From Psammoneis japonica (Eukaryota), in NCBI GenBank assembly GCA_008632985.1, contig QPGO01000054.1, positions 405,050 to 450,680 of the forward strand: a stretch of DNA of 45,631 bases. The letters are read 5' to 3'. Below are positions 1 to 29,653 of the stretch, piece after piece (within the stretch, counting starts at the first letter, position 1; every line of letters begins with the position of its first letter). Below the pieces are notes generated by a model that made no database searches, was not told the DNA's origin, and saw only the letters and a program-made list of their open reading frames with translations. A program made the position numbers and the translations under genes.

Positions 1-2874
1 ACTTTGTGCCCTCCAATTTCTGAAGGCTCTGGTCATTGCCACAGATCTTCAACATCTCTTTCTTTCTGCTCATTTCAAGGCACATGGCATCCCCAAGAAG
101 AGGCTCTTTCATTGCTGCTGTGGAGTCAGTCGTCCAATGCCAACTTCTTACACTTCTCTCTTTTGGTGATTTCATTCTTGGCTTTCCCAAAGCTGTGTTG
201 TCATGCTTTGTCCATGCATGGAATGAAAGCATCATTTTAAACAACTGTGTCCAGCAGGACTGTCAAAAACATCATTGCACTTGACCCACAGGTCCTGGAA
301 TTCTTCATCTGAAATCTCAGCAGCTTTGCACAACTTTTGTCAAGATGGTTGGACAACATGACAGCAAACTCCTTCTCTTTGCAACTCCTGTCCTTGCTGT
401 CATTTCAGTTGTCTGCTGAAAATGCATGCATGCACAAGCAAAAAAATTTATGGCCAGCTGCACAAAGTCAGAGTCTTTGGGTCAAACATGAGGAAAATCT
501 GCAGGTTTCTGCACATTTCTGGTGCAAACAAGCACACTTTTCCATTGATGGTGGAGAGCCCACCAAATGCATCACTTGGTGCCACACCTTGTTTGTTGAT
601 GAGTCATTGCTGTTCCTGTGAGTGTTGCAGAGAGCAACTCATTTGTCACACCTCTGCTGCATGTGCACAGCTTTGTGAGGTCAATGCTGTCTTTTGGCAA
701 CCCACAAGACTGGAGAAACAAAGGAGAAAAAAATCAAAATCTCCTGCATTTCCATGGAGGCTTGTCACAATGTCTTGAAGTTCACATTCCATTGGGCAAG
801 ATGCTGCTTTGCAAGTTGTTGCTTTTGGGGCTTGTGTTTGGGCATCATGTGTGCAGTTTGACCACCTTTTTCAATTTAAGTGGGAACAGGTCAGCAGGAC
901 AAATTGAAGAAGAGTTGCCAATCACAGCTGCAAGCAAAGCTCCAAACCAACTTGAGTTTGTCACAGACTTGGCTGGCATTGGTTGAATCTTTTGAGCAAT
1001 GTTTGTTGGCAGCAGCAAAAGTCAGATGTGCCATTTGGCTCACGATGCATGTTGCACATGCACACATTGCTTGGACTGTGCAGTGTCTTTTTCTAATTCT
1101 TGCCCTCCCATGCAGCACCACCTGCAAATGCAAATGGCTTTGAATCATTTGAAAAATTGTCTGAAAAACAATTCTTGCTGTTGGCATTGACATGACTTGT
1201 CCCAAATTGGGCGGCAAACATGAGAACAATTGTTCCCAGTCAAAGGCTCATTTGACAATCACAAGGGCATGTGCAGTCCAAGCACATTTTCCAGTGGCCC
1301 AAACACACTGTTTGGCAGAATGGGAAAGAGATTTTTGGCTCAACACACACCTCCTTGGACCACAATTCAATGGCTTTTGCATTGAAAAGTGCCATGGAAA
1401 GAGTGGAGTTTGATCATCTTGTGAAACTCCAGCTGATTCATTCATGGCAATGACATTGCTTGCATGTTGCGCATTCCTCACTCTGCACATTTGTCCATTT
1501 CTCTTGATGCTCTAACAAGAGAAATCAACTCTTGTCTCACAGCTAAATTCCAACAACCCCAACAGCTCTTGCAATTGATCCCAGGCCAACTTGTGTCACT
1601 CATGTTCAAGAACAGCAACATCAGCTTCATGGTTGTCATGAAACAAAATCATCAAATGCTGTCACTCTGCACTGAGGATTGAGCTGCCCATGATGACACA
1701 CAACAGCTGGAGCTGTTGCAGTGCTTCTTGCACAACAGGGCCTTCACAATTTCACAGCAGAGACCACCCATTTGGTTTCAAGACACTGGTGCTGGTTCAG
1801 GACTGAGTGTCTCATTTTGAAAGTCCAGTTCCAGCAAACACAAGATGAGCTGATGAGCATTGTTTCTTCCAAATGTCCAAGTGGACTTGCATGGTTGTGC
1901 CCTGCTGCATGGCAGACAACTTTCACAATCAGCTCGCAATTGCAGCAACCAGTGCAGGGACAATTTCTGTCATCACAGTGCTTCCTGCAAAACACCATGG
2001 CCAGGTGTCAGGTGGTTGTTCTCTTCCATTGGAGTTGCTTGCAATGGCTTGGATGTGACGTGCATCACCTCAGAGGCATGTTGGAAGTTGCTTTGGTCAG
2101 CTGTCATTGTGCTGCCAAGATTGACTCTTTTGTTGTGTGAGAAAAGCAGGTGCCTCTTTGTTTTTCTCATTTTTGTTTCAAGATTCTGAGTGAGAGGGTC
2201 AACAAAAATTTGTGTGAAGAGACATTGGATTTTTTGGGCGTGTGTCACATGATTTTCAGCTGGTGGCTGAAACAACTCTGCTGGGTGATGGACAAACCAT
2301 GCACAGGGACAAGAGTCCTTAATTCTGTCTGAGACTTGGCATTGACAACAAGGCAGAACATTTGACCAAGATCTCTGCACTGTCTCTCTGGCCAAGACAG
2401 CCACAAAACACCTGCAGTGTCTTCCGAGCCGTTCCCTCATCCCATGAACACATCAAATCAGCTGGAGCCATCCAGCAGATTCCACACCCAATGAGCTGGT
2501 TTTGAGTGTTTTGAAGAGCTCACACTCAAGACAGGATGCATTGACAGGGGTGCAAGTCATTTTTTGACTTTTCCATGATCAACTCATCATTTGCATCTGT
2601 CGTGCCAAGGTCCTTGCACACTGAAGTGATTTGCACATTTCTTGAGTCAACCACACATGTGCACTGGTGCACCATGGGTCATGGGTCTTGTTGGTGGGAC
2701 AGTTGCACTCCCAAAATGGAGATGATTTGCTTGGTTTGCACAGCAAGCTTTGCACTGTCTGACAAAACCATCCTTGCCAAGTCCATGAGAGCAAACAGAG
2801 ATGGCAACAGCACAGTGTCACATTCTTTGCTGCCTTGAAGCTCTGCAAAAACCTGCAAACATTTTGGCTCCCTG

Positions 2875-2915
2875 CTGAATTTGATGGATGCTCCACTGAA
2901 TTTGATGGATGCTCC
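2875..2915 (+). repeat. Short tandem duplication
   Basis: ctgaatttgatggatgctcc occurs at 2875-2894 and 2896-2915. Confidence 0.9.
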
Positions 2916-3932
2916 TCAATGCCATCTTGAGCTCAGCATGACATTTGCAGCTCTGGACTCCCTTCAAGGCACTTTTGCACTGATGGTGCCCAGTTGAGAA
3001 ACTTCCATGGAAGACAACTGAGCTGTTGCAATGCACCACCCAAGCACAAACAAGCTTCTGGCAGGTTGTGCGCTGCAAGTTTCAAGCATGAAAGGGATCC
3101 TGCAATGAGCTTCTTTCAGCAGCATTGCCAGATTTGCATGACCAAAGTCTTCTTGTTGCTGCACATGACAACAGCACACCTGCAACAAAGTTGTCCCACC
3201 TCACACAAAGCCTTGCTTGAGACTCCTGAAAATGTGGCCATCTTGAAACCTGCTGGCATGATGCAACAGAGTGCGCAGATCATGCAGTCATGATGACAGG
3301 TTGTTGTTGCAGACAACACATTGCCTCTGCAAGCATGATGTGTCTGTGTCAGCCAAGATTTGCTGCACATGCAATGGACCACCCCAGGTCACAAGAACAT
3401 TGATGGAACAAAAAATGTTTGTGGTGTTCCGCGCACACACTCCAGGCCAACATGGGGAGCTGTTGTTGGCTCAGGAAGTGCAAAGATGTCCTGGAGATGT
3501 TGGTTGAATGATTGCTGTTGAAGATGGAGAAATTGAGCTGTGGTCACACAAGGCATCACATTTCCAGCCAAGCACATCCCAGAAATGACACTTGCATGGG
3601 AGCACAAATTTTGTTGCAAAGTCTTGGTTGTGCCACAAAGTCTTTGGAGTTTTGGCAGGCACTTTTGTCTTCCTTGGAGGAGATTGTGTGCACATGAAGG
3701 AACTGAGTTTTGGCTCCTTGCTGCAACCACTGCTGCTGCCACTTGCAATGACCTCTGGTTTTGGGGCAGCAAACAAAATGTGTTGGTCATCATTTGGGGG
3801 ATGTTGGAGTGCAGAGTCATGGGACAGCTTCTGAGTGCACTGGAGGGGGGGGACAAGAGCTGTCATCAGGGGATGAAGGATCAAGCACCTCATGCACCAT
3901 GCCCTGCAATGGGTGCTTCTTGATTCATCACT

Positions 3933-3963
3933 TTTGTTGTTGTTGTTGTTGTGGTTGTTGTTG
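3933..3963 (+). repeat. (TTG)n microsatellite, one interruption
   Basis: ttgttgttgttgttgttgtggttgttgttg seen directly. Confidence 0.85.
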
Positions 3964-6060
3964 GACAAGGAAGATGACATGCTTCTGCTGTGGCACAATC
4001 ATTTTCTTTGAGCTCCTTTGGGAATTTGTCTGCCTGTGTCCATCAGGGAGGGTCACTGTGCCATGGGGCTGTGCTGAGACAATGAACTGTGCCATTGCTT
4101 GTGCTGTTGGCATCCTCATGATTTGCTGCAAAGCTGGGCCCACCATCAGAAGAGTGCGAAGGGAATGTGTGCTTTCTAGGAAAATTGTGTGGCCCAGCTT
4201 CAACCCCCAAAGTTTCATTTCAATTGGCAAGAAAGGGCCAATTTTAGAGTGCAAGAAATGTGCATGATGTGTGTGGTTTTGCAAATGGCATCACATGCCA
4301 TTTCTTCAGAAATTCAGAGATCTGAAAGAGACATGCTGAACACAGTGCATGGATGGTCCTGCATGCAAGTGACTGACCCATGCCATTGTGCAGAGAGCAA
4401 ATTCCTGTCTTGCACAAAATCTCATCACAGAGCCAATTTGTTGCACTCACAACACCATGCTGAGTTGATTGAATGATCCTCCTTGACCACACACAGCAGC
4501 CAGCCCACCACACACAATGAGGGTGGAGGAAGACATGACAGGTGAGGTGAGAAACAACAGCAAGCAGACATTTGGTTCAAAGCGCCAACACTCACACACA
4601 GCAAGGTGGGCTTGTGCCTCACGCAGTGGCACAAGCAGGTGGATCCTCCTCAACAGCCACGTGGGATGCAAGTGTTGCCAGCACTGGAGAAGGGAGAGAC
4701 AACAAGTCTGTGACTGACAAATCATGGTGAAAGAAAAAGCAGCACAATGAGAAGAGATGCAGAAGAGAGACAAGGACAACTCTGAGGCACTTGGCAAGAA
4801 CAGTGCATTGTTTGGGAATGCACTGCAAGTTCCTGAACTGCAGTGCACTCAAGATCCACACAGGAGTGGTGACAGTGATGATGACAACAGTGGATGTGCC
4901 AAATGTTTTGCAACACAAATGCAAGCAAATCAGGGAGTGGCCAAAGAACAAGGTGAGCCAGCTGATTGCATGAGGGGACAAAACAATGCTATTGGTGAAC
5001 TTGGTCAAGCAAGAATGCAACCGCAAGTGCAGCCTGGGAAAAAAACTGACACAGTGATTGAAAAACACTCACACATTTTTCTGTTTTATTTTCTGGTGAG
5101 CACAGGCAGAGAGGGCTGTTGCACAAGAAAGAAAAAGCAGCAGATTGCAGAGAGATGCCAGCACTGGAGCAAATGCCAGGAAAAGCCAGGAACAACATGG
5201 GCACATGCTCTTGTTTCACACACTCATTTCTGCCTGTTGTTGTTGGCAAGAACACTTGAAAAAATGATGCATGGTCAACACCTGTGCTTGTTGCTGGTTG
5301 AGCTTTTGCAAAATGGCAAGGAGCGACAGGGTGCTTGCCATGTTGGTGCTGGAAAGCAACTGAAAGAACACAAGTGGAAACTCATGCATTGAAAGTCAAG
5401 GGAAAAGTTCAAGGAGGCTCAAGCAGAAGGCTGAACATCAACGGCTGATCACTGCATTGGAGTGAAAGCAAGAGAAGCAAGCAAGAAGCACCATGAGACG
5501 AGCTGGGCTGCAGCAGCAGGCCAGAAAGGCTCCCAGCACCACAGGTGCAGGCAGATGGACTGGATGAAAGGAGGTGGGCCATTGTGACCAACTGCAATGA
5601 AGTCTGGTTTCAACAGTTCTGCCAGATTGTGGACCACAAAAGGAGCAGCATGTCTGACCTTCTTGTCCAAGGAAGTTTGAGAGGAGAGAGCCAGGAGAGA
5701 GGAGAGGCAGACAAGACGTGGGTCTGCCCCGATGCTGCTGTGCAAAGCTTTCACTGTGGCTTTTTCCGTGGCTGGCTGCCTGCTGTTGTTGACCTGATGG
5801 TAAATTCTTTCTTGTGTGAAAAGATCGTTCTTCCCTTTCTTGCGTCTCACTGCCACTCCAACACTCGCAAGAGCACTGTTGTGTGCGACACAGAGATGGG
5901 TCCTTGCTTTTCTCGCACTGCAAACTGTGGTATCTTATGTATTATTGCACGAATTATTTCAATGTTTGTTTGCCTCAACGGACCATATATATTATTAAAG
6001 TATCGATGACAATATGAAGAAAATAATAATGAAGTCACTACACGTTTGAAAAGTCGGCTC

Positions 6061-6072
6061 TTCCCGCCAAAA
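6061..6072 (+). promoter_or_regulatory. E2F-like site TTCCCGCCAAAA upstream of the Reeler gene
   Basis: Resembles the TTTSSCGC consensus and lies about 140 bp before ATG 6211. The same motif recurs in reverse at 29640-29653. Function is inferred. Confidence 0.3.
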
Positions 6073-6210
6073 AACGACGTCACGCATGCGCGATCTGGAT
6101 CGGAGGTCGGAGTCGGAGGTCAGCATCAGCACAGCATTGTGTGTGTTGTGTTGTTTTTCGTTGTGTTTCGTTGTTGCAGACAAAAGATACCCTCTTATCA
6201 CCTCTTCACC

Positions 6211-7233
6211 ATGGTGTCCTTCCAATGTGCTTCGCTAGCCTTGGCTGCAGCCTTCCTTATGGGAAGAGCAGATGCCTTTCCAACCGGTGCCGGCGGCTGT
6301 GACGCGGGAGATCTTCTTTTGGACTCTGTTGGGGGTGCCGCGCATAGGACCCGTCCCACCACCACGGGGCCTCTTGCGGACGTTGGCTTTCAAGTCGCTC
6401 TCGACGACCAGGCCTTGACGTCTGGTACTCCAGCGAGCTTTGTGGCGGGCATTCCGCATACAGTGACTTTGACGGCCACGTCGGACAAGAGATTTCGTGG
6501 CTTTCTCATTCGTCTTGAAGATGCTGCTGGAGATATTGATACGACCCAGGCATTGTTCACAGAACCTACGCTGGGTGCCCCCCAAGTGCGTATTCTGGGA
6601 CTCTGTATCGAAGGTGAAGAGGTTGGTGGAGTCACCCATACAAACGGGGATGACAAGACGTCCGTCTCGGCGCTCTTGTTTCTCGAGTTTGGAGAGAGCA
6701 ACACCACTACCCCTCTCAGCATGGATGTAACCATGGTGGTTCAGAACAGTGGAACGTCCTCCGAGTGGTACTACTCTCCCTTTACCGTGAATTTGGTTAC
6801 TCCAGACACTGAAAACGATCCTTGTCCCATTTGCGGGGACGGCGAGTTGGCCGAATCGTCCGTCAACAAGACTATCACGTTGCCCAAATTCCCTCCCCTC
6901 ACGACTACACCCACCAATGCGACTTGTGGACAGGTGAACGACTGGGCTCTCGAGGGTGTAGTTGCAGCTCAACTTTGTACGGCCTTTCAGCAAGCCATTT
7001 CTGTGGATTGTCCTTGTGCTGGAGCGGAGCCGGACACCTTGCCTCCCTCCATGGCTCCTGGACCTTCGGAACCACCCACCTCGGAGCCGCCCACAATGAC
7101 GGATCCACCCACGATGACGGATCCGCCCACGTCGGATCCTCCCGCGACGGAAGCTCCCTCTGGCGCGTCTGCAGTCACTGTGCAGGCAGTGATTCTCTCT
7201 GTCGCGGCTTTCGGAGTTGCTCTCTTTGTGTAA
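6211..7233 (+). CDS. Secreted, probably GPI-anchored Reeler-domain cell-surface protein
   Basis: Signal peptide MVSFQCASLALAAAFLMGRADA|FPTGAGGC. Reeler-like motifs FRGFLIRL and GVTHTNGDDKTSVS. Cys-rich module CPICGDG..TCGQV..C..CPC, Pro/Thr repeats (TDPPTM) and a hydrophobic C-terminal tail after PSGASA. Intronless. Confidence 0.75.
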   Translation: MVSFQCASLALAAAFLMGRADAFPTGAGGCDAGDLLLDSVGGAAHRTRPTTTGPLADVGFQVALDDQALTSGTPASFVAGIPHTVTLTATSDKRFRGFLIRLEDAAGDIDTTQALFTEPTLGAPQVRILGLCIEGEEVGGVTHTNGDDKTSVSALLFLEFGESNTTTPLSMDVTMVVQNSGTSSEWYYSPFTVNLVTPDTENDPCPICGDGELAESSVNKTITLPKFPPLTTTPTNATCGQVNDWALEGVVAAQLCTAFQQAISVDCPCAGAEPDTLPPSMAPGPSEPPTSEPPTMTDPPTMTDPPTSDPPATEAPSGASAVTVQAVILSVAAFGVALFV

Positions 7234-7537
7234 GGTACAAAAGGATGCTCACGGATGTAATGGCTCTCTAGTCAAGGGGCCTCTCTGGTTTAACAAGTTT
7301 GTAGTTTCAAAAAAGTTAATTGCGGGTGATCCAACATATCGTACGTTCGTTCGCCCAGTTTTTAGTCATCGAACGACTTTCGCGTGTTGCTGTGATGCGC
7401 GACCAAGTTCAACTTGAAGGGACGTCGTAGATTTTGACGTCATTGTTGTACTGGAAACAAAGATATTTTGAGCATCAAGGGGAAACTTGATTCAAAAATT
7501 CTGATTTCTAGTGTCACGACCAGAACAAAAAGTGATC

Positions 7538-9484
7538 ATGAACATGACAATGCTTGTACGACTTCTATTCTTAAGCTACATTGGCTATACGCTTTTGGCG
7601 TCGACTCACGTCGTGGCTTATAGCGTCACAGCCAAGCGAAACCGAAAAGCAGTGGTGGTCGGAGGTGGTCCTGTAGGCCTCGCAACGGCATTGACATTGT
7701 CGAATCCTCCGCATTGTTTCGACGTTACCTTATTGGAACAATCCGTCGGCAATGCCTCAGTCGCTCGCTACGACCCTACCAAGGCATACTTGTATCTCGT
7801 CAATCCTCGCGGACAAGTCTGGATGAAGAACTTTCCCTCGAGTTTCGAAAAGCTGATCGAAAGAGGCGCAGAGAACAGCATGGGAAGCTTCATGGTTGTC
7901 CCTGCGGATCCAAACAAGCCGCTTCCAAAACAAAGATTGAGCAGCAAGAGGGAAAGTCCGTTGAAAGCAAGATTTTTACAGCCACTAATGCCGTCGAAAC
8001 GGACAATGATGACAAGAGCTATTGGATCCCGCGGCATCAAATGATTTTGCTCTTGATGGAGGTCATTGGCGAGCAAGAAGCCGCCCGTAAAAAAGAAAGC
8101 AACTCCGTACGAGGGTCGATCAAGCTAGAAAATGGAAAGAAATTCCACTCCATTCGATGTTTGGGAGGAGATGGTCATCATCAGCTAGTAGAAGTAGAAG
8201 CTCAGGATGCAAACAGTGCAAAAGCGTGCATTACGAGGCTGACCTTGTGGTTGGCTCGGATGGAGTGAACTCTGCCGTGAGTGCAGAGTGCTGATATCTT
8301 TCACTCTTGATGGGTGTGATTCTGACTCTTTTTTTCTTCCTGCTATAGGTCCGAGAGTATCTTGCCGCTGAACAGACGGCAACTCGCCCTGGATCTTGGT
8401 TGACGGATGCTCGCCATAGCTTCAAGGCGAAAAAGTGGGCCTCACCAGCCTCTGGGCTCGAATGAAGGTATCTATCGTGTCGCTTGCTTTACGAAGCTCA
8501 TTGTCGTTTCATCTGATACTTCCATAACCTCATTCTCACGCCAATTTAGGTACTACAATTCCCACCCAAATTCCCAATACCTGATTCGGACGGTTCCGTG
8601 TTTCATGCGAAGGATGGTGTACGATTCGTTCCGTCAATACGGGTCCAAGAAATAGACTATCGCTAGGTATTCTTCCAGTCAAGGATCCAACATTGGTTCG
8701 ACCAGCTAATGTTATTACTCGTCCAACCCATGATGCTTGGCAATTCCGAAACGGAAAGGAAGCAAAGCAATGGTTCCAAAAAGCATTCCCAAGACTCAAC
8801 TTTGACGATTTGGTAGATGGTGATGAATGGGATCGGTTTGTGGCGGCCAAGGGAACTACCTTTCCTCATTGTCAGTACAGCCAAGGCCTGCAGGTATCGT
8901 CACCGGATGAAACTTGTGGAGTCGTACTGGTAGGAGATGCCGTTCACGCGTTTCCACCAGACATTGGTCAAGGAATCAATGCCGGCCTATCAGACGTTGT
9001 AGCGCTGGACCGAGCTCTTCGAGGTTACGACATTGTTTCTGGAGAAGCTTCCAAAGAGAACAACAGTGCGCAGCCAAGCCTGGGGTCTGCATTGAAAGAA
9101 TATGAGCGTGTACGACTTCCAGAGGTGAGACCGGGATCTAGCTCTGGCATTCTTTGCTGTCATTCTTCTCACTTACGACTTGTCGTTTCTGTTGCCATAC
9201 AACAGGCAAAATCTTTAGTTAGGATTGCAAGGTTTGGCTCTCCTTACCAGTACCGCCAATCTCCCATTCGAGATCGCATTGGTCGATTCTTTTGGATATT
9301 AAACAGTCTTCCTCGGGTGTTGCTACACAAGCTGTCGTTTGGTGTTATTCCACCGCCCATGATGATGATGATCCAAAACAAAAGACTTACATATAGACAG
9401 GTGTCGAGACGAGACAACATTACCACTGCTGTCATGGCTGCTTTGATACTCGGTTTAAGTTATGCTGTTCGCGTCATCGCATGA
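7538..9484 (+). CDS. FAD-dependent monooxygenase (kynurenine 3-monooxygenase/UbiH-like), copy 1, four exons, about four -1 frameshifts
   Basis: GGGPVG dinucleotide-binding motif, ADLVVGSDGVNSAVR (DG motif), LVGDAVHAFPPDIGQGINAGLSD (GD motif). Introns about 8277-8348, 8468-8549 and 9125-9205 match the paralog's positions. Frame breaks near 7928, 8221, 8459 and 8610, so either sequencing errors or a pseudogene. Confidence 0.8.
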
Positions 9485-9519
9485 ATAATCCATTGGTACA
9501 AGACTACAGTATTAAAAAA

Positions 9520-9576
9520 ACAGTGCTCTGCCCTCCAAGAAAAAAAATAAAGACAGTGCTCTTCCCTCCAAGAAAA
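9520..9576 (+). repeat. 24-bp direct repeat pair in 3' flank
   Basis: acagtgctctgccctccaagaaaa (9520) and acagtgctcttccctccaagaaaa (9553), one mismatch. Confidence 0.8.
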
Positions 9577-9919
9577 CTATCGGGGCAACAATACTTTTCC
9601 AGAGATCGAAACGAAAACAACCGTCGTAAGGAGAAGTAATCGTACGGCACCCTTTCTTCGCAACATAACATAATAAAAGGGATGGTCAGTTCGTAGCAGG
9701 AAAGCCTTTGAGTCGCAATGATACTTCCTAGAGCATGATAGGAGGATGAAAGCTTTGATTTTGCTACAGAAAGTGACGTTTCAACTACATATGGTGGTTT
9801 TCCGAAAACAAGGTTGCACCTGCTCGAGTCAGATTCTCAGACGAATTGCCGTTGACTTTCTCCCATTTATGTTTTGACTTGCGAATGTTCAGCATGATTG
9901 GTATACCCAGAATGACGTG

Positions 9920-10458
9920 TCTTTAGTTTGAGTTCACTTTGATATTCTGCAAGAAACCTTCAAGGAAACCAACGGGGAGCCCCATCCAAGCCGCCTGATG
10001 GAGCAAACGGTTCTCGTTCACGGTGCGTGGGTCGTCTAGGATGCAAATAGACGGGACGCCTCCTTCCATAGTCCCGGCGGAGATCAGCATTTCACCATTG
10101 TCGGAAAAATGAGCCCATCGCGGGTTACTCTTTGTAACAACGCAAATGCTCAGAGGCAGACCCGTTGCTAACGAGAGATTCGTGATGTGAATGCTACACG
10201 TTTTGCTGTCACCCTTTCCTTGGAGCAGCTGTCAGCGAGGCATTCACTCTCTGAGCTGGTAGTTGGTTTGTCGTCCATCGCATCATTTAGGTTCACTTTC
10301 ACGGACCAGCGATCAGTTTCCGGATAAAACTTCACCGCAATTCCATCCATCCCGTTGAGCTTTTGTCCGGCCTCGGATTGAAGCCCGTGAATGCGGACCT
10401 TGGTGCCCTTTTGAACGAGCATGTTTGGTTTAGGGTATTTGTACGGTTCGAAGAACAT
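9920..10458 (-). CDS. Hypothetical protein with an N-terminal SH3-like beta module of the type often seen in algal MYND proteins; frameshifted, 3' end uncertain
   Basis: GTKVRIHGLQSEAGQKLNGMDG..F..ETDRWSVKV. Adding one base near 10220 continues as GKGDSKTCSIHITNLSL..., open to about 9920. Confidence 0.5.
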
Positions 10459-10866
10459 GGTTTTTATTCAAAGAGAGCGCCGAGGAAACCGGTCGTAGTC
10501 GTCAAATGGTTCATGGCTCAGATGCTCAATGTGATGACGACCAGGATCAAGGATCGAATAGCGCTAGTCAATAATTCATAATTCGTCATCGTCGCCGGTT
10601 GCCGGTTGTCGGGGGGAGCATTTTTTTCGCGCGCAGGATCCAAGTTTTGATCAATCCGACTCTACCGGTAAGGGTGCTTCCGGCACCCGGATTTCAAAAT
10701 TAAATGCATTATACAGATCTGTATTTAGAAATTTGACACTTGCGTTCGGCTCCTGAATCCCGAGTAGTCTCCAGTCCCGAGTGCCATCACAATCAGCACT
10801 TCTTGTGACGAGCTCGTTTCATGACACTACTACAACGTTGTCTCGGCCCTGCTGTTGTTGTCATAA

Positions 10867-13253
<2,387 letters not shown>

Positions 13254-13621
13254 ACCTGTTATCGTCTCTGAGGAAGTAACGTTTAGAATGGTCTCCCACT
13301 TTAACTCTTGTCACGTCCCGCGTATCTAGTCTTTTGGCGAATGTTTTCCTCTCGCAAGAATAACATACTCGATGTAGCGTAGACAACTGGATGTTGGCAG
13401 CTTGCTAAGCGTGAACACACCCAGGAATTTGCCAGTGTCTATTACTGTCTTGACAGTCTATCTCGTGATAGATAGGACTCTAGTGCCTACTCTCTTCTCT
13501 CTAGCGGCTCCAATAGAGACTTCTAGTGGAGGCGTAGCACCGGTAGTCGTAAACGTTGAATGGTTGTTCCCTCTAGTAGCTAGACTCATTAACCCCGCCC
13601 ATTATTTTCCCTATTTCGACA

Positions 13622-15695
13622 TCATTGGCAAAGACCAACAAGAAGCTGTTTGATAGTCTTTCCGAATATCGCCCAAACCACAGAAATGATCATGGTCGTC
13701 AGAAGCGCCGTAGTCATGTCGGCTCGTCGCATCGCTTGTCGAAATGTAACATCTTTTTTCATCACCATCATTATCGTTGGAGGAGGAATGATTCCAAACG
13801 AAATCTTGTGTAGCAAGGCACGGGGAATCACGTTGAGTGTCCACAGAAATCGGCCGACGCGATCCTTGCGAAGAGATTGGTTGTACTGATAGGGTGCGCC
13901 GAACCGAGCGACTCGGATCAATGCCTTGACCTAACAAATAGAAGACACGAGTGAGACCTTATCAATTGTGGACACAGTCAATAAAACAACGGATAAGTAC
14001 CTCAGGCAATCGCACACGCTCATACTCTTTCAACGCTGCTCCTAGAGTTGGTAGAAGCGTGCTCTCGTTCGGAGCTTCCCCTGTGATTATGTTTTCGCCG
14101 CGCAGAGCCCGATCCAGAGCTACGACATCGGACAGACCCGCGTTGATTCCCTGACCAATGTCTGGTGGAAACGCGTGTACCGAATCGCCCACCAATACCA
14201 CTCCAGCATTCTCGTCTGGAGACGATACCTGCAATCCTGGACTGTATTGACAAGGTGGAAATGTGGTACCCTCCGCCGCTACAAACCGATCCCATTCCTT
14301 GTCGTCTGTCAATTCATCAAAGTTCAGTCGCGGAAACGCCTTTTGGAACCACTCCTTTGCTTCTCGACCACTCTTGAATTGCCAAACATCATGACTAGGA
14401 CGCGTAATGACATTGATGGATCGAACCATGTTGGGGTCCTTTACGGGAAGAACACCAAAGCTAATTCGATTCGTGGGGCCAGTATTGACAGAGCGAATTG
14501 CAAACGTACGCAGGCCCTCGGCTTGAACGACAGTTCCGTCTGAGTTTGGTATAGGAAATTTGGGTGGAAATTGCAGCACCTACAGGACAGTCAAGTGGGT
14601 ATTGTTGTGAGAAAAAGACCAGACGAGCGCCTTCGTCAAAAAACCATGTTTCCACGCATACCTTCATTCTCAACCCAGTGGATGGCGACGTCCATCTTCT
14701 TACTTTAAACTTGTAGGGAGTCATTGTCACCCAAGAGGCTTCGACCGGGGATAAGGCTAGAGGTGCAGTTATTGGGACTATTGTGTTTTCTTCTGCGAGA
14801 CATTCACGAACCTATTGTGCCAAACAGAATGTTTCACTGAGAATGGACGAAGGATCCCAAACACGATACACAGTTTAGGTATACTTACTGCAGAATTCAT
14901 CCCATCAGCTCCAACAACAAGATCAGCCTCATATGAATGCTTGTATCGTGCCTTTTTTGACTTCATATCCTGAACTGTCACCTCGAGTTGATGGTCCTGT
15001 CCCCTCAGACATTGAATTGACTGGAACTGCTTGCCATCTACTAACTCAATAGACCCCAATTCACTGTTCTTTTCTTTTTTACGAGAAGCTTCTTGTTCGG
15101 CAATTACCTCCATCAAGAGCACAACCATGGAGTGGCGGGGAATCCAATAACTCACGTCCTTCTCAGCGGCATTGGTTGCTGTAAACATCTTGCCTTCGAC
15201 GGACTTTCCTTCTTGCTGCTCAACCTTTGATTTTGGAAGCGGTTTGGTTGGATCCGCAGGGACAACCATTAAGCTTCCCATGCTATTCTCTGCACCTCGT
15301 TCAAGCAGCTTTTCGAAACTCGAAGGAAATTTCTTCATCCAGACTTGACCCCGAGGATTGACGAGATACAAGTATGCTTTGGTAGGATCGTACCGAGCGA
15401 CGGACGCGTCACCCACTGTTTGTTCCAACAAGGTGACATCAAAACAGTGTGGAGGATTCGACAGTGTCAGCGCAGTTGCCAATCCAACAGGACCGCCTCC
15501 AACCACTACTGCCTTTCTCTTGTTGACAGTTTCCGCTTTCTGGCCACCACCGGTAGTTGAAGCGACCGCACCGATGGCAGCTTTTCTTCGCGAGCTGGCA
15601 GAAGGAACCATTGCATCAGTCGTCGCACATGTCTGACTGCATACAAAGCTGAACAGTGCAAAGCCACCCAAGGAAGAAAGTACCCGCTTCATCAT
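13622..15695 (-). CDS. FAD-dependent monooxygenase (kynurenine 3-monooxygenase/UbiH-like), copy 2, intact
   Basis: Exons 15695-14889, 14811-14662, 14579-14001 and 13930-13622 with GT-AG ends splice in frame. Motifs GGGPVG, VGADGMNSAVR and LVGDSVHAFPPDIGQG. Signal-peptide-like N-terminus and hydrophobic C-terminus. Confidence 0.88.
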
Positions 15696-15758
15696 GGCCT
15701 GTCGTTCTTCTGGGTGATGGGGAACACAACGACGACAACAACGCCAAGCACCATGATG

Positions 15759-15810
15759 TGTCAGAAGTCAGAAGAGTCAAAAGAGTCAAAAGCAAGTCAA
15801 AAAAAGAGCC
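15759..15810 (+). repeat. Degenerate (AGTCAAAAG-like) tandem repeat in a ~305-bp divergent promoter
   Basis: gtcagaagtcagaagagtcaaaagagtcaaaagcaagtcaaaaaaagagcc lies between ATGs at 15695(-) and 16001(+). Confidence 0.6.
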
Positions 15811-16000
15811 AAAAAAGCTGCGCTGTTTATTGCTGTTAGTTTCTTGCGCTTCTATGAGAGCGCAGTTAGTCGATAGATTCGCATCAAAGATTCCGAATTC
15901 CATGAGCTCGCAAATGGATTTCGGTCTGCTATCGTCCGTCTCCGATGCACCAAACTCCCGAAACTCCTCATCATCCTTGACTATTTTTGACCGCATCGCC

Positions 16001-19000
16001 ATGGCGTTCAGTGGCTTTGGCGCACCCGCTCCGGGTGGAGCGCCCGCACCAGCGCCTGCTGGTGGTGCCTTTTCCTTTAATACAGGAAATACAGCAGCAC
16101 CAGCCGCGGCTCCAGCAACAACGGGGTTGAGCTTTGGTGCACCAGCACCCGGAGCAGCAACGGGAGCGGCGCCGACTCCCGCAGCACCAGCGCCGGCGTT
16201 TAGCTTTGCGACGGGTGCACCTACTGCTGCACCAACGCCAGCGACAACAACAGGTACGACTCAGGCACCAGCTACAGGAATAAACTTTGGTGGAGGTGGT
16301 GCACCGGCGGCGGCGGCAACGCCCGCAGCAGCACCCGCAACAACAACACCGGCACCAGCAGCGGGATTTAGCTTCTCTTCGACTGCACCAGCGACAGGTA
16401 CCACACCGGCACCGGCTGCAACTACTACGTTTGGAGCCACTATTCCAGCCCCATCAGCTACTCCGGCACCGGCGGGTGCCTTTGGTGGTTTTTCTGCTAC
16501 ACCGGCAGCGGGTACAACACCAGCAAGTACGCTTGGAGCTGCACCAGCAACTGCAGCTACGCCAGCAGCTCCCGCAGCACCGACTGTAACTGTACAAGAT
16601 TTTGAAGAACAGTTTCCTTATTCATCCATACTGTCCAAGGTGAAACGCTTGCTACCGCTCGTTTCCAACGATCAAGCGACTTTGGAATGGCAAGAGCTCT
16701 TTCATATTTTACAGTGCCAACCTACTTCTACCGACAAGTCTGTCATTGGCCATTTGCTCTCCAAGCCACCACCCTTGCAGTGGAATGCCCGCAACGATGC
16801 GTTCCGGTCTAGACTACAAGCCAGTCCGACCGTTTTGTTGCAGGGCAAAACGGCCGGCCTTACGCCAGAAATGATTCAAGAAATTTGGCAATTGGCAGAC
16901 GATTTGCGCATTACAGAAGAATCGGCCCTTTGCCTCTATGCCCAAGCAAGTGACCCCAAGAAACGAAGGCTGATGGAGTCCAAGCTTCAAGCGTCCGGCT
17001 CAAGTCTGACGCTTGGAACCAACGTGCCCAAGGCCGCCCGAGAGCTCTTTTTCTACGAGCACAGCTGTGCGCTCACCACCGTCCTGTTGCTTTTGCAACA
17101 GCGACTCCAAGCTTCCTCGGATCAGACTACGCCCAACGCCTTTCTCGTGGCGACGGACCAATTGATTCAAAATGGTTTGGTGGAGAATTTAATTTCTCTT
17201 GTTCGTGAATACACGCTCTTGGCGGATAACTTGGAAAATGAGTGGGCACGGAAAAAGGCAAACATGCAAGTTCCAGCCTTTGGAGGAACGCCCGCGACGA
17301 CGTCGTCGAACGATAAGGGATTCTTGGCTGAGCTCTTGGACTTTGTGCAAAAGCAAAGGCAAATGGCGAGCGAGTGTCTCTTTTATCTTACCTATCACAC
17401 TCAGTGTACGCCACAAGAAGTGGCCTCCTTGATTGATATCGTCAAGGAATTGACCAATGGCAAAGATAACGCTACCGGTAGTGGCTTACCCATTTTGGAT
17501 CCGTTCAAGGACATTCCGTCTGCTTTTGAAAATGATCCAAACGCGGTCCCCGTCGCTACGGGACCGTTTGCGACGGCTTCACCCTTTGCCGCACCGGTGC
17601 CAGCCCAAAAGGAAAAGGATCCACTCAAGTGGCGAGAGGAATTGATCAAGAACGTGTGGGAGAGCGGGGGGAAACCGCAGCTACTCAAGTGTGTGTCGGT
17701 GTTGATCATGTCTATCATTTGTGCACTGGATGGACGACAAACCTTGATGGATCGAGCTCGGCATGGTCCGAATCAATTTGGAGTGGTAGGTTTGTTGTCT
17801 CATGTTGTAACTTTGAATCATGCGGAAACCACAATGGATCTCACATTTTATTCTTTTCTCTTTCACTGACTTTCGATCACAGGGAAATGCTCTACTTCCG
17901 CCGACCCAAACTGGTGTTCCAGGCTCAACAGATGACCTATTGCCGATTCATTCACGTCTTGACCCCAAGAAAGAGATGCACAAGGATTGGAAACGCAAAG
18001 ATATCTGGGGTCTGTTGGCCGCTTCGTATGCGCTCTTGCTTCTTCCTGTAGAAATCGTTTCTTCTTCTCCTCGTAATCGAAGCCGGTCGCACTCCTCAGA
18101 CAGCTTTTCACCGCGTAGAGGCCAGATTGACGTCAAGGCAACCTGGCGAGCATGTCTCGAAGCACCGACTGAGATGCAGTCTTTTAGTTTTGCGCGTCTC
18201 TCGTTGGTGCCTTCCTTTGCCAAGCGCTCGTACGGACCCGACTGCAAGTGCAACAATTACGAGGTAAGTCCAGCCGTTCTCATTCTCGTTTTTGTCTTGT
18301 CTGGTGTACAAGAGATACTCACATGTCCTGGTCCTTTAAGTTCTATATGTCTGTCCTTTCCGAGTTCGTCTCGAAGTATCTTGATGTCCTGTGTGCGTCT
18401 GGAAACGTTCCGATTTCAAGAGAGCAGTGGAAATCGGACGAGGAAATGGAGTTGCAAGTCAGCCGGGCTCAACGAGACCAGGATCGGAAGTTTGGGGACT
18501 GGTCGGGAACATCGACGACCGACGTGCAAGACATTCCCAACGAAGTGGATCTGTTAGGGAGGCCTGACTGTATGGACGACGTCATGGCGTTGGCCGTTAC
18601 GGTTTGTTCGACTGGTCCCACATTTGCGCTCAATTTCTGGTCTGTCGCAGATGAAGTCGTAATAGAGGGCGACACCTCTATCACTCGACCAACTTTGGTA
18701 CCAAGTCGGGCGATGCAGACAATGGAACTTCTAGTTGCAAAGGATGAGTCCTTACGGCCTGCTCATATATCTTTTCTTGGCGCGTTGGCCTTGGCACAGG
18801 GGCCTGAAGAAAACCCTGAATGCAGTGGGGCGGCTGTCATTCACAAGAAGCTGTCTGCCGAAGTTGACAACACCAAAGTGAGTTGGTACTCCATTCTCTA
18901 TAATATCGGGTGGTATGCCAAACAGTTGAATACTAGCAAAGCAGGACTGAGAGGCTCGACAGAAACGATGCGTACCAATACTTCCAGTGGTTTTGATACC

Positions 19001-22000
19001 GCGTCGACTGCCTATTACTACGGGGCGGACCAAAGCAACGGCGGTGGAAATTTTCAATCTTCGCAGTCGCAGCAAACAACGACCACAGCGTCAGCGGAAG
19101 CCAAGCCGACGGAACTAGGAGAGGCCAATCAAAGCACAATCTTGTCCCACCTTGCTCTAATTTCAAGCGTGGCGTCTCAATCTTCCGAAGCAAGAGCTGA
19201 CATTGCAGCAAAAGCAGTACCCATCAGCGATGGCGTGGGAGGAGATCATGGACTCACCATTCTGTTTTCCATGGCGATTGCTCCAGTTTCTCCAGAAATC
19301 CGAGGAGCTGTATTTGTCGCCATCTCCAACATTCTACGCGAACCATCGCTGTCATCTGTGAAAAACAATAAGACAGTGCAAGACATGGTGAGGAAAGGTT
19401 GGGATTTGCTGGAAGAAAGCCAGATCATCCCTATTGGGCTACTTGATCAGTACGCCGCTCCCACGGGAGTTTCGCGGACAGCGGTAATGGGCTTTCCGCT
19501 CTCCTCGACAGCTCAGGTATGTTTTGGCATTGAAATGTCGTTCTTTTTTCGATGGCGGCTTACTTGTCGTATTGCGTTTCCTTCACTTAAGGTCGCGACA
19601 GGAGCGGCAGAGCAGTTCGGCACTCCGTGGACGCCTCCTGATACTAGGTTTGGTATTATGTATGAAATGGAACACGTCGAGTCTCGCCAAGGAGTTTATC
19701 CTTCGACAGAGGGGTTGCTGCATCTGCTGACGACTCTTGTCATGGTTGGTGGTTGCCCCGCAGATCTCGGTCGATTCTGGAGGCCGCGCTCTGGTTGCTC
19801 CCCGTACGTCGAGTACGTAATCCATTTTGTGCTTCCTCGAGCACTGGGGACAAAGAATACTGACCAGGGTTTGCCGTTTCGAAATCTTGGAGACAAGAGC
19901 CGATTGGTCTGCCTGGCTCTCGAATTGGTGGAGGCCGTATTATCTCGCTATGTTGTTCCATCACCCCTTGGAAAGGTCTCTGGAAGCTCAGAGCCTCAAA
20001 TCACAAGCGCAGTGTTTGGTCTTTCGTCAGTTGCTGAAGCTATCTCCATACATCCGAATGAAGCTGACCAGAAAGCGTATGCGGCGGACTGCCGCGATGA
20101 ACTGGTGTCACACAGAACTAATTCTGGAAGCGACACGACTGGTGGCTTGTTGAGTGGTGGTATCGCGGCTCAAGCCCCGTATACACCATCAACAGCGGCT
20201 CTTACCGGTGACGCTGCTCTTCCTCTGCCCAAATCACCCGGGTTTGCGGTTCTGGTTGATATTTTGTCTTCCTTATACGGCGATCTCTTCAAATCAATCG
20301 TTTCTTTGTTGACTCAAGACTTCGCGTCCCGTGGTATGATTGAAATGTATGGGGATCCTGAATATTACGCAGTCGTTGCTGCCTCGCTGTTCGGGAGAAC
20401 ATCGCCATCATTCCATATTGCCAAGCAGGCTACTAATCAGAACCAGTCATCGTCGCCGAACAAGCACGCGTTACTAAAACCGCCATTTCCTGCTCATTAT
20501 CAGCCTGCACGTCTCATTGCTTGTGATGATGCGTCCGCAGTCTCGATTGATGGGACTTTTTGGAGAGAGCGCTCCGTCTCCCTGGCGCTTCGCATTCTTT
20601 GCGCAGCTGCAATTCGCGAAGACCAGTTCTCTCGGATTGTCAATGGCTTACGTCATCCGATGAAGATTGTGCCTGTTCTAAGGTTACACAGGCTTAGCGG
20701 TAGGCCTTCTGGAATCCGTGCATACGATGTGCAGGTGTCGAGGCTTGTTGATTTGTTGAAGTCCTCGGCCGGAGTTTGGGATTCTCAAGGTGCAGGAGAT
20801 GGTGTTTTCCCAACGATCATGAAGTATCTCGGATACGTGTCGCCATCTTGGAAACAAGACGCAGAGGTTTCCAGCCCAGCTGTCGCTCTGATGCTTTATG
20901 CTGATCGCATGTTACCGGCTTTGGAGACGGTGCGAACGCTCTGTGGTGCCTCCTCGAATGGAGGCACACATCTTGCTGTTGCAGTGGCGAGAAGGCTGAA
21001 AGTGTCATCCACGCGGGTAGAGATAACTTCTCACGCAGATATTGTACGCGTCATTTTGAATCTATTGGTGTCAAAGTTGCGAGGAGACTCGGCCAGCGAT
21101 GACGTGAACATCTCTCATATTATGTTAGGATTGCCAAAAACTTCGATTGCCACCGATTGGGACGCTGCCTCTGTCGACATATGCGCGGATTCATTTGATG
21201 TTATCGTGGAGCAGATATCCCGCATTGATTTTGTTCGCGACAGTCGCACCTCTAAATTTGCAGCAACGGCTTTTGAAATCTTGTTCTGTCTGGTTCGCAC
21301 GCAGGGCATTGACCAATCTAGAAAACTGACTCGAGTTCTGTACGCGGCACAACGGCTTCGCGGCATCGATTTTTGGTACAAGAATCTTCTTCTATTCATG
21401 GAGAGAGGAGGAGAGCAGCGTTGTATTCTAGAAGAAGCCACATCAAGCGCTGCGGATGAAAATGGCAGTGAGTTACTTCATTGTGTCTCCTGGCTGTTGA
21501 AAGGCGTATCGAACGAACTTCGGCTGTTGATGGGAGTTTCAACACAATTGAAGGACGGACCGATCCCCTCCCAGTTGTTGGGAATGGCGTCGCCGCGCCC
21601 AACCTCTTGTCGACGTCTTCTCTCGCTACTTTTTGCTGGGCCTAGTTTCCTAGCAGTTCACGCGCTGAACTACCTACCTCTGATACGGAAAAGCGGCATG
21701 AGCTCCTTGTCTTTGCCGTTGAATGAGGTGGAAGATATCCCCTTGCAGGGTCCCGCCGATGTTGTTGCAGGGTATTTCATCATCTCCATTGACAAATTAC
21801 GTCATAGATTTAGTAGCCAAGGAGAGAATGAAGCTGCTAATGTCGCGCGGAAATCGGCGGTTGATTGGGCCAAAGAATGGAACTTGGTTGTTACACGAGA
21901 CTGCGCTGTTTCTCATTTCGCGGATGCGCTACGTGTAGTGTTCGGTTCATCATTTGTCTTCTGTGGGAATCTTCTTCTCGGTGGCGGGGCGCCATTAGAC

Positions 22001-24193
22001 AGAGGGGGGGTCTTGCAGTATCTGTCTCTCATATTGTCACGGCTGACGGACGAGATGAACGGCATTAGTGATTCTCGTGGTGTAAACGACGCTTTGTACC
22101 ACAAGGCAGCTCTTGAGATGGCTAGAGTCGCTCTAGTTCTGGTTGAGGAGATCGCTGGCGCGAAGGATAGCACACAGCAACCTCAACTTCCTCTCGATAG
22201 CGGAGATGCCGTTAGTCTTTATGTGCAGCTCTCGACGGCGGTCGCGGTGTCCTCGAAGGTTGACGGCCAAACTTTACATGAGGTTGAAAGGACTGTTTTG
22301 CTCGGGAGATGCCTTGCTTTGATATCAGAAGCTGTATTTAGAAGTCCAAATGGGTTGCACAACGTTGATGGGGAGAAAGAAAACATCTTACTTGCGGCCT
22401 CAGCATTGGCTAGAATTGCGAGCAAGCCAGTGAGCGGGTCATCTAGGGTTGACTGGACTCCTCGCGGCAACCGAAATGCTTCTATGATTCGAACTGCCAG
22501 GTCGTCTCTTTCTACTTTACTAACGTGTCACGAAAACGACGACGATGCACGTGAGGAATCCTTGGTTTTCAAATTATTCAAGATGGGTCCTGCACGTCGT
22601 GACAGAGCTGAAAAGGATTCAATATCATCCCTCCTTTCTCTTGTGACTACCTTGGACGACGATGTCTACAACATCTTATCTAGCATTGCACTCTGTCGTT
22701 TCGGCGCGGAGCTTCTGCATGAAGCCGGTTTGCTCGCTGTTCTTGAACGGGCTGCTCAGCGCTACACCGTAGAAGAAGGCCGAGTTCGCGCTCAGGTATC
22801 GTCGACGAATCAACACGTTGACATACGCACCCCATCGTTTCTGTCGGGACACTTTTCGCTATTGAATGCAATGCTGTCGACTCGGTCACTTTCACCGGAC
22901 AACCGCCAGAAGGTCGCAGAGGACGCAAAAGAAATTATCCGTTGTCACATCCCAATAGTGGAGCGTTTGATCCTCTCATTCCCAACCGACGGGGACGTAG
23001 TTTTAGAGTTCACGAAGTGCCTTTACTTGGTATCGAAACCGCGTGACTTCGACAACCCTGCTGGCGGTCAGAATCTATGGCAACTGGACAGCGTAAAGTC
23101 ACGAAGCCATATCGACCAAAGGAATTGGGCTGCTGTCGAGAAGCTAGTGCTTGAACTCACCTACCATGTGTCACAATACCCCTTCCCCCGGAGACTTCTG
23201 CCAGTACTTCCTGCGGCATTAAATGACACCCAAACCTCTCAGGAGCCTTCAAATCATGTTGTTTCCGTCTCAAATGCAGCCACGAGAATCTGGTGGGACG
23301 CCGTTGAAAACCGGCTTCTAAGTAAGGAACGGAATCCGCTTCCAGAGCCTCCTAGAATCGCGGCGAGCAGTGGAGTTTGGTATAATGATGTACCAGATCT
23401 GAACAGCAGCGGTGGGTGGTCCGACCAACACTATGAGTTCTGCATACAAGCTTCTCGGATTCTAGATTCCAGTTTGTCATTTTTGAATCAGCGAGTGCAG
23501 CTTTCGCCTCCACTCCGCATTGATTGTTTCGCACTGGCAAAAGGATTTTGTCGATGCGCGGACTCCGCAAGAGTGAGTATCCCATGTCGTTTTCCAGTTG
23601 CGTTGTAACTAGTTGGTTCTATCAGCGTCTCTGACTTACTCGTTATTTGATCTATTCATCAGGCCATCGAGGGTAGGCTTCGTACGCTCGCAGGCGCGAC
23701 TAGTGGCTCGTTGGTGACTGACGGTGTCTTCAACATAAGCATGACAAGCAACGAGGAAAGCACGAGAAGCAAACAAATTGAGCTGGAGTATCTCTCGCTC
23801 CTGGGCCCTATCATCGGTCGTTGTGCAGAGAAATTTCTCGTGCTCACTTTATCATACCTTCGCGGGGTTGCTCGTGAATCAATGACTGGGTCTGAGATGA
23901 TAGGAAGCACCCATCAACCGAAATGCCAGTTGCGGGTTTGTCAGAGTTGATGCTAGCTTCCCTCGATCACACGCAGGTTGAGACGATGGTGAGTCGTCTG
24001 TGCCCAATGCATCGTCTTTCTTAATCCATTCCCGCCAACTCCCATTTCCAATTCGCCTTTTGTTTATTTTATTTTTCAGGGTGTTGGATGCATCGGATAT
24101 GAGAGAGGTGACGAAAAAAAGAGAGACTTTGCTAGAGAGATATCGAAAAACCTGCGGAAGGAGCTGCAGGGCGAAATGAAGATGTTTACCTAA
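16001..24193 (+). CDS. NUP205: Nuclear pore scaffold protein Nup205/Nup192 with N-terminal FG-repeat extension
   Basis: Nup205-like blocks EIWQLADDLRITEESAL, TDQLIQNGLVENLISL, QRQMASECLFY, GIMYEMEHVESRQGVYPSTEGLLHLL and PADLGRFWRPRSGCSPYVEYV. Introns about 17786-17882, 18264-18340, 19517-19591, 23573-23662 and 23989-24079. One missing base near 23911. Stop TAA at 24191-24193. Confidence 0.8.
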
Positions 24194-24308
24194 AAAACGG
24201 AAGTCGAGAAACAGAGAGGGATCCGGAGACTGAACAGAAAGTCACTTAGTTCCGTAGATAGCACTACCATGGCATAAAGGGAAACAAGAATATATTTATG
24301 GTAGGCGA

Positions 24309-26129: not shown

Positions 26130-26351
26130 TGCACCGACCAATCCAAAGCGACCGTACCAAAAACAAAAAAGTGAGGTGGAAAAAAACGGACGGTGGAGCG
26201 GACGCTTCAGTCTGTCCGCTTGCTCCCCGCCATTGCTGGTTTCGCGCGAGAACGCGCCGGGTTGGTACCGAATTTTTTCACGTTTCGTCACAATCGCGGA
26301 GCCATGGCGTTCGAGTAGGTGCTCTCTAGAGAGTACCGCACTTTAACCATC

Positions 26352-29639: not shown

Positions 29640-29653
29640 TTTTGGCGGGAAAA
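29640..29653 (-). promoter_or_regulatory. E2F-like site TTTTCCCGCCAAAA in divergent intergenic region
   Basis: TTTTGGCGGGAAAA on the + strand, followed by CGCGCG, between divergent starts at 29409(-) and 29953(+). Confidence 0.3.

Follow-up and report, generated by a model that had tools for sequence, protein, structure and literature searches.

Graded flanking-base rule for the loss of TpA from transposons and duplicated DNA in the diatom Psammoneis japonica

Introduction

To our knowledge, no natural enzyme has been established as editing the adenine of chromosomal DNA at scale, and to obtain adenine base editors a tRNA enzyme had to be evolved for the purpose. The closest natural system seems to be that of Bigelowiella natans, for which the parts of a recent preprint available to us describe a de novo TpA>TpG/CpA hypermutation of integrated viral DNA (nucleocytoplasmic large DNA viruses and virophages), not always active, running about 1000 times above background in mutation-accumulation and tentatively ascribed to an ADAT2-like enzyme (Mettrop et al., bioRxiv 10.64898/2026.01.13.699255). 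The main text of that preprint, as far as available, contains no analysis of flanking bases and no mention of diatoms, and no diatom report of TpA hypermutation was found among the papers listed by the literature searches, which mostly did not cover subscription journals. Here, we describe a 45,631-nucleotide stretch (hereafter “the window”) at the end of contig QPGO01000054.1 (C55) of the Psammoneis japonica assembly (91.4 Mb, 597 contigs), both flanks of which are nearly devoid of TA steps, and follow up an earlier reading of it (the “original prediction”), which held that the surviving TA sites are almost all TTA or TAA and that a mutator with a specific V-T-A-B target, rather than drift, might be responsible.

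Results

Surviving TA sites in the window and elsewhere

The observed-to-expected ratio (o/e) of TA in both flanks (1-5900 and 41830-45631) is 0.00-0.05, rising to 0.18 in the kilobase containing the edge, while that of CG is 0.02-0.4 and TG and CA stand at about twice their expectation.

1..5900: left depleted block, old dead repeat or duplicate DNA with 13 TA and 29 CG remaining
41830..45631: right depleted block, 7 TA remaining, 6 of them TTA/TAA
149, 238, 449, 877, 1094, 1513, 1544, 2320, 4177, 4245, 4990, 5087, 5801: TA survivors of the left flank (n = 13)
42066, 42499, 43666, 43926, 44066, 45055, 45160: TA survivors of the right flank (n = 7)

All 20 survivors had been listed with the right position and context, TTA/TAA accounting for 11 of the 13 on the left and 6 of the 7 on the right. 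The resulting share of 17/20 compares with 367 of the 1012 genic TA sites in the window (0.363; Fisher p 1.3e-5), with 0.44-0.46 expected in the flanks by base frequencies and with 0.535 under a Markov model allowing for the TT/AA excess (binomial p 0.003); survival proportional to the flanking-base background, which was to count against the original prediction, is thus not what is seen by either test. The bias is real, neither chance nor artefact. Short-read contigs (run X1) show 3 differences over positions 1-4476 and agree fully over 4742-7236, which rules out long-read base-calling error, although the run may stem from the assembly’s own sample and is no independent isolate.

The proposed count of all NTAN tetramers in depleted versus genic DNA was carried out on 41 other 10-kb stretches, picked blind at round coordinates, in which TA o/e proved bimodal with sharp edges and fell below 0.15 in 263 of 818 500-base windows (about a third). 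Survivors were tabulated from 158 interior depleted windows (79 kb; both neighbors with TA o/e <0.15, CG o/e <0.7), where 265 were found among 18,715 TA/CA/TG/CG sites, the TTA/TAA excess holding here as well (208/265).

TTAA: 62/1404, 51% of the genic share
CTAA+TTAG: 77/2158, 31%
GTAA+TTAC: 42/2502, 11%
ATAA+TTAT: 27/2682, 7%
CTAG: 21/986, 11%
CTAC+GTAG: 27/2489, 5%
CTAT+ATAG: 7/2091, 2%
GTAC: 2/1304, 0.6%
GTAT+ATAC: 0/2117, 0%
ATAT: 0/982, 0%

RTAY sites make up 2 of the 265 survivors where 62 would be expected. V-T-A-B is therefore a serviceable rough approximation of the target, but it does not hold as a flat class: 57 of the 265 survivors are themselves VTAB, 55 of these with a G 3′ of one strand’s A, and CTAG, which has no protecting A, survives like GTAA (both 11%) and better than ATAA (7%). 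The strict A/not-A form of the rule, with three parameters, had to be rejected (deviance 116, versus 253 for no preference and 46 for an additive steady state), the best of the four models compared being a four-parameter product of per-strand factors (deviance 20), so that TA survival is roughly a product over both strands. The factors estimated at the other loci also predict the window’s own 20 survivors (log-likelihood -35.3 vs -47.6), with TTAA seen 7 times across both flanks (4.8 predicted, 1.3 without preference) and RTAY never (6.0 expected without preference). A Poisson regression (28,239 sites, 490 survivors) gave per-strand log-survival effects of 1.24 for A, 0.91 for G and 0.14 for T at +1 and, farther out on the same strand, 1.13 for +2A, 0.56 for +3A and 0.41 for +3T (all standard errors 0.09-0.14). 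Protection of survivors by chromatin patches or nucleosome phase was rejected, as neither clustering nor a nucleosome-scale period appeared in 37 segments totalling 108 kb (largest z 1.7).

Mutation hazards in element copies

Alignments of transposon copies, the other check proposed with the original prediction, recovered the signature as TA>TG/CA with hazards graded by the 3′ neighbor. An RVT_2 search gave 150 scored Copia matches, of which 40 were retrieved, with families of near-identical copies among them. In family A (13 full copies of 6.6 kb, 95-99% identical; L016-L027, L033) six lightly hit copies served as the reference that defined 275 TA sites, at which the seven heavily hit copies gave 482 TG, 339 CA, 4 CG, 3 TT and 1088 unchanged; TA>TG or TA>CA thus makes up 821 of the 828 changed sites, and transversions make up 3. 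A competing-risk fit, with TAC set to 1, yielded hazards of 0.87 for TAT (bootstrap 0.75-1.11), 0.38 for TAG (0.22-0.48) and 0.27 for TAA (0.20-0.34), with a likelihood ratio of 147 on 3 degrees of freedom and a plus/minus strand ratio of 1.02; the extended fit added factors of about 0.55-0.6 for A at +2 and 1.7 for A before the T, and the most hit 4-mer was TACG (82/113). The family of long interspersed nuclear element (LINE)-like copies represented in the window at 35470..41635 (16 other copies, 130 sites) gave 1 for TAC, 1.23 for TAT, 0.40 for TAG and 0.26 for TAA, with a sense/antisense hit ratio of 1.06, the hottest sites being under-sampled by the requirement of TA in at least two copies. 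Long terminal repeat (LTR) pairs alone, taken where at least 4 TA differences were present, gave hits per opportunity of 0.27, 0.22, 0.12 and 0.07 for a 3′ C, T, G and A, respectively, the A with a 3′ pyrimidine being the one chosen at mixed sites 57 times versus 18.

The rule is, therefore, a graded one: 5′-T-A-Y on the mutated strand is fastest, TAG and TAA are 2.5-4 times slower, and A at +2 slows the change further. With the rate at each A governed by its own 3′ side, the TA sites that survive are the slow ones, and TA>CG is rare because the first hit takes away the 5′ T of the partner A. The strand symmetry of protection that had been argued from TTA and TAA being reverse complements is borne out, TA>TG and TA>CA proceeding at equal rates on both strands. 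A majority-polarized spectrum of a second Copia family (family B) was set aside as biased, most of its copies being already without TA, and that family was used only for LTR pairs and for the removal of new TA.

Timing, domains and targets

TA>TG/CA accounts for 82 of the 126 differences between family A LTRs, 79 of the 82 lying in the 5′ LTR, and for 65 of the 143 in family B, there in either LTR. Since the two LTRs are identical at insertion and yet differ in TA, the process acts on chromosomal DNA post-insertion. The hit domain of family A starts at the 5′ LTR/end, runs for 1.5-5 kb and stops abruptly, the 5′ end ranging from almost untouched to nearly fully hit among near-identical copies. 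Within hit domains, TA was lost at 772 of 933 sites, CG at 78 of 1337 and other sites at 169 of 17,358, as opposed to 30/835, 11/1019 and 49/15,252 in cold domains, which supports targeted mutation rather than drift. CG loss is fivefold higher in hit than in cold domains; TA loss comes before CG decay but in a common domain, which suggests that chromatin in a silent, probably methylated, state provides the guidance.

DNA other than retroelements is hit too, namely, the copy of a host gene at 669-1800 of the window and methyltransferase gene copies on contigs C297 and C301.

669..1800, minus strand: degenerate copy of a host gene that is intact on contig C39 (L006), 70-72% identity

The C39 homologue of the former, a gene with CTP-transferase-like and LicD domains, is intact, and of its TA steps the dead copy has kept 1 of 40 (24 became CA, 9 TG) and of its CG steps 1 of 53. 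The latter (L090-L092, L163-L165) are repeated C5 DNA methyltransferase copies, stripped of TA with CG only partly lost, intact relatives of which lie on C59, C10 and C34; the genome holds 27 C5 methyltransferase matches.

Two insertions deserve separate mention. One element (L027:1164-7742) has unhit LTRs, 99.7% identical, around a heavily hit interior and is likely a copy of an already mutated parent, so that hit elements can apparently still be copied. At L024:8482, one short-read contig crosses the insertion site without the element; the insertion, which is heavily hit, could be heterozygous, unless a repeat has produced an artefactual contig path. Over a hit young copy, short-read contigs are 60-80 bases long.

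Off-targets, removal of new TA and dose

Adenines outside TA are changed by a similar rule in hit domains, A>G being seen at 62 of 3806 non-T-A-Y sites versus 10 of 4382 non-T-A-R sites, with rates of 0.60 for TAC, 0.033 for AAC, 0.028 for CAC and 0.004 for GAC. The shared 3′-pyrimidine rule and the 5′ ranking (T >> A, C > G) fit one binding pocket. No strand runs were present among adjacent hits, and strand-processive tracts were accordingly rejected.

New TA created by C>T in old family B copies is retained at 7 of 1275 CpA sites versus 82 of 2272 at CC/CT, with 0/447 at RCA and 5/400 at TCA, so old DNA is hit late as well. The TTAA share is flat over CG age classes (0.050, 0.048, 0.038, 0.046), and the RY:YY survivor ratio is 11-fold (99/11,302 vs 4/5083, p 3e-6) where a steady state permits at most twofold. 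The multiplicative survival, the 11:1 RY:YY ratio and the partial purge of new TA point, indirectly, to a limited and fairly recent dose or strong pulses as the best fit.

Footprint in proteins

TA>TG/CA cannot turn a sense codon into a stop but yields Tyr>Cys/His, Ile>Met/Thr, Leu>Pro/Ser and Val>Ala, and hit Pol copies have lost up to 33 of 46 tyrosines while carrying 0-1 stops. Other data sets supplied 120 Pol relatives, three of which (P0130, P0134, P0165) have 6 of 11 conserved tyrosines changed to Cys/His, the mean for the other 117 being 0.11 of 11. The best match of P0130 (Copia Pol) in the genome is 64%, P0134 and P0165 were compared with the retrieved loci only, and the differences within the P0165 cluster are mainly Y/C, Y/H, A/T and I/M; judging from these proteins, the same process probably operates in other organisms with related elements. 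Of three metagenome loci with Copia relatives, L142 and L143 show no depletion and L144 is too short, and viral contigs gave one weak match to Copia DNA.

Other features of the window

1843..2290: dispersed old repeat, common to C51, C4, C79 and C63 at 66-78% identity
5900..5931: abrupt edge of the left depleted block (1 TA in 5401-5900 vs 10 TA in 5901-6000)
5920..35470: genic control region (Nup192-like, TYW3, flavin oxidoreductases, ankyrin, TPR, exonuclease)
35470..41635, minus strand: young non-LTR retrotransposon (LINE-like), RVT_1 frame 36072-39248, partly hit
41636-41735: gap of 100 N

The left block extends about 2.5 kb past the window start (locus L001). A six-frame Pfam scan of both flanks gave 0 matches in 15 frames, and the old repeat is without a Pfam match. 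The genic control has a TA o/e of about 0.3-0.75 and a CG o/e of about 1, and the named relatives of its TYW3 gene are all diatoms (Seminavis, Nitzschia, Pseudo-nitzschia, Amphora, Cylindrotheca, Attheya). It also contains an inverted pair of FAD-dependent monooxygenase-like paralogues (7644-9429 and 13707-15517; 70-77% identical) without TA depletion, so duplication alone does not set off the mutator. The non-LTR element has many genome copies at 93-97%. The right block past the gap matches stretches on C136, C230 and C404 at 99-100% identity, and 41736-45631 may be a recent duplication or a misjoin. It contains the remains of a helicase-like sequence, with a Walker A-like motif in translation and many older genome relatives, which we take to be RecQ-like, although it has no Pfam match.

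Discussion

A host process very probably changes A:T to G:C at TpA in inserted or duplicated chromosomal DNA, each strand’s A being struck on its own, with its 3′ neighbors determining the rate (TAC ~ TAT > TAG >= TAA, with a protective A at +2). A TA then persists only if both its A’s are slow, which is why the survivors are TTAA, CTAA/TTAG and sites of the TARA type. The direction of change, its presence on both strands, the post-insertion timing, the bounded domains, the flank hazards, the off-target rule and the removal of new TA are read directly from the copies; the chemistry, in turn, is most likely deamination of adenine to inosine that is left unrepaired and copied as G, presumably by an enzyme of the TadA/ADAT fold, which would be steered by silent chromatin and released in pulses of limited dose. 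We would put the probability of a targeted process with such a flank rule at about 0.95, and that of adenine deamination being its chemistry at about 0.6. “Enzyme specificity”, as the original prediction had it, thus stays the best reading of the pattern, its likely source being some natural enzyme that edits adenine in DNA.

Several observations weigh against this reading. TpA being palindromic, a change read as A>G at T-A-Y may in sequence equally be T>C at R-T-A. The multiplicative per-strand model still misfits (deviance 19.9 on 6 degrees of freedom), TAG and TAA are poorly separated (overlapping intervals, strand choice 19:23), and copies share history (78 common outcomes vs 58 expected for L019/L024, 51 vs 38 for L027/L020), making them partly non-independent and the hazard intervals too narrow. 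The genome’s ADAT2, plastid-type TadA and two ADAR/ADAT1-family genes look ordinary, and none is linked to the process; the second ADAR-like gene occurs widely among diatoms, and endonuclease V is present. Judging from the portions of the cited papers at hand, the 5′-T preference is at least 18-fold over the next base here versus about 3- to 4-fold (TA over GA) for ABE7.10, which shows only a small 3′ effect (PMC8065034), and amphioxus ADAT2 acting on DNA prefers GAA and TCG and also makes C>U (PMC10354150).

The palindromic ambiguity is what keeps a thymine lesion under consideration, i.e., a T in 5′-R-T-A modified (e.g., by TET/JBP-type oxidation) or replaced through mismatch repair and ending as C: all counts fit T>C at R-T-A just as they fit A>G at T-A-Y on the opposite strand, and the fivefold CG loss in the same domains, together with several C5-methyltransferase genes, places cytosine-methylation machinery nearby. 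We know of no chemistry, however, that converts T to C near-completely without transversions, of which there are only 3 among 828 changes, and a repair-bias route needs earlier replication errors and cannot give 83% versus 1% at other sites, which leaves this explanation unlikely, if worth keeping in mind. A two-step route, in which an adenine methyltransferase would put N6-methyladenine (6mA) on TAY in silent DNA, the base being then deaminated or miscoded and the flank rule being that of the methyltransferase, would explain better than a TadA-type enzyme why TA is so strictly required, and 6mA deaminases giving hypoxanthine reportedly exist. Eukaryotic 6mA, though, is mostly found at ApT in active genes, and ApT is not depleted in the flanks (o/e 0.65-1.07); the route seems improbable.

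Error-prone synthesis of patches by a polymerase of the Y family (WA>WG, as with pol eta) drawn to methylated or mismatched DNA would find five IMS-family loci in the genome, AAC/AAT among the top off-targets and raised CG loss in the same domains to its credit. Pol eta mutagenesis at A:T is known by its WA motif, substantial AA hits, transversions and strand-coordinated tracts, a pattern absent here: AA sites change at 0-3% versus 22-60% at TA, CAC equals AAC, transversions are near zero and strand runs are lacking. Such a sloppy polymerase is unable to remove 83% of one dinucleotide and yet spare 99% of the other bases; these counts exclude it, and we regard the polymerase explanation in general as quite improbable.

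Survivors could, alternatively, be newly made TA, either because the C>T changes creating them favor TCA/TGA or because gains and losses are in a steady state, as the constant TTAA share across age classes and the rise of new TA at TCA (5/400) might be taken to indicate; loss rates in young copies already give the same order, however, background C>T has no strong 5′-T bias, the RY:YY ratio is 11-fold where twofold is permitted and the additive equilibrium fits worse (deviance 46 vs 20). As the main cause, the steady state is rejected on the copy-based hazards, the RY:YY ratio and the deviance, and the explanation is very improbable, although new TA may contribute at the slowest sites only. Lastly, ADAR RNA editing or reverse-transcriptase error fixed by retrotransposition, for which two ADAR/ADAT1-family genes and hit patterns inherited between some copies might speak, is excluded by the equally hit strands, the differing LTRs of single insertions and the hit non-retro gene copies, just as a sequencing artefact is contradicted by the short-read contigs agreeing with the flank, making this last group hardly credible.

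If adenine deamination is the chemistry, candidate genes might be sought among the deaminases. The families searched were PF00383, PF14437, PF02137, PF00145, PF00817, PF04493 and PF02245. ADAT2 on C26 carries the HxE/PCxxC motifs and Asn at the TadA D108 position, an Asn that is common in eukaryotic ADAT2, as far as the accessible part of the source goes (PMC10354150); the plastid-type TadA has Asp there. The two ADAR/ADAT1-family genes are L138 (C40) and L139/L140 (C79), the relatives of the latter, which span centric and pennate diatoms, having the deaminase domain alone. No match to the MPG/AAG glycosylase was found in the genome, which was counted in favor of deamination. The frames examined contained no fusion of a deaminase with a chromatin reader, the families searched not including APOBEC-like and toxin-type deaminases, TET/JBP, MT-A70 or AlkA-type proteins. 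Two further deaminase genes were encountered: an open frame fusing a zinc deaminase domain to a 2OG-Fe(II) dioxygenase (L060; C79:87006-90176), and a dCMP-deaminase-like gene with two tandem deaminase domains, identical on both contigs carrying it (L056/L059 on C41, L057/L062 on C317).

The fingerprint obtained here (TAC ~ TAT : TAG : TAA = 1 : 0.4 : 0.26, a factor of about 0.55 for A at +2, AAC/CAC >> GAC, no strand runs) gives a criterion for retaining or discarding any candidate gene by a simple reporter or in vitro assay. It also allows the screening of other genomes, even from proteins alone, Tyr>Cys/His in Copia Pol being a protein-level marker of the mutator in other organisms. Repeat ages estimated by LTR divergence, GC content and transposon annotation are biased in such genomes. 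Taken to its furthest, the evidence would have diatoms edit adenine in their DNA with a base editor of natural origin, namely, a deaminase with the motif T-A-Y-B that is guided by chromatin, erases TpA from transposons and duplicates in pulses as the A:T counterpart of repeat-induced point mutation (RIP), disables element proteins by stripping them of tyrosines, is common to chlorarachniophytes and occurs in further diatom-like genomes, a proposition to which we would give somewhat less than an even chance.

Comparison with known systems

Fungal RIP is likewise repeat-directed, acts on both strands post-insertion and ruins element proteins through dinucleotide-specific transitions. Unlike RIP, which makes TpA by C>T at CpA, the diatom process destroys TpA, i.e., affects the opposite base pair in the opposite direction, cannot directly make stops (tyrosines are stripped while frames stay open) and often covers only part of an element, from the 5′ LTR in family A. 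RIP is set off by homologous pairing during the sexual cycle and depends on RID; here, partial-element domains, together with untouched near-identical copies, argue against simple homology sensing. AID/APOBEC enzymes are also agents of context-specific defence hypermutation, but on C, and ADAR edits one RNA strand, at odds with strand ratios of 1.02 and 1.06 and with the LTR asymmetry.

TadA-derived editors, according to those parts of the reports that were available, follow TA > CA > AA > GA and prefer a TAC motif (PMC8065034; PMC9126838), the context preference being likewise given in 10.1101/2024.11.19.623682. They share with the diatom process A>G, the preferred 5′ T, G as the least favored base and TAC as the best motif (here with TACG as the top 4-mer), which is a resemblance and not membership, since they are engineered, need displaced single-stranded DNA and have a looser 5′ preference.

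The process in Bigelowiella, from what the available part of the preprint describes, is the nearest of all, both being almost exclusively TpA>TpG/CpA, on both strands, confined to foreign or silent DNA, with an adenine deaminase proposed. Bigelowiella belongs to another supergroup, however, and the targets in Psammoneis japonica are LTR and non-LTR retroelements and duplicated host genes, hit to near completion across about a third of the sampled windows; a rate per generation (about 1000-fold) is available there and only a relative figure, 83% versus 1% in the same domains, here. The kind of process has thus been reported once before, in a preprint, to which the present data add its occurrence in a diatom and the flank rule, along with measured hazards for two classes of element, the contexts of off-target hits, a pattern of finite dose and the tyrosine footprint in three Copia proteins of other data sets.

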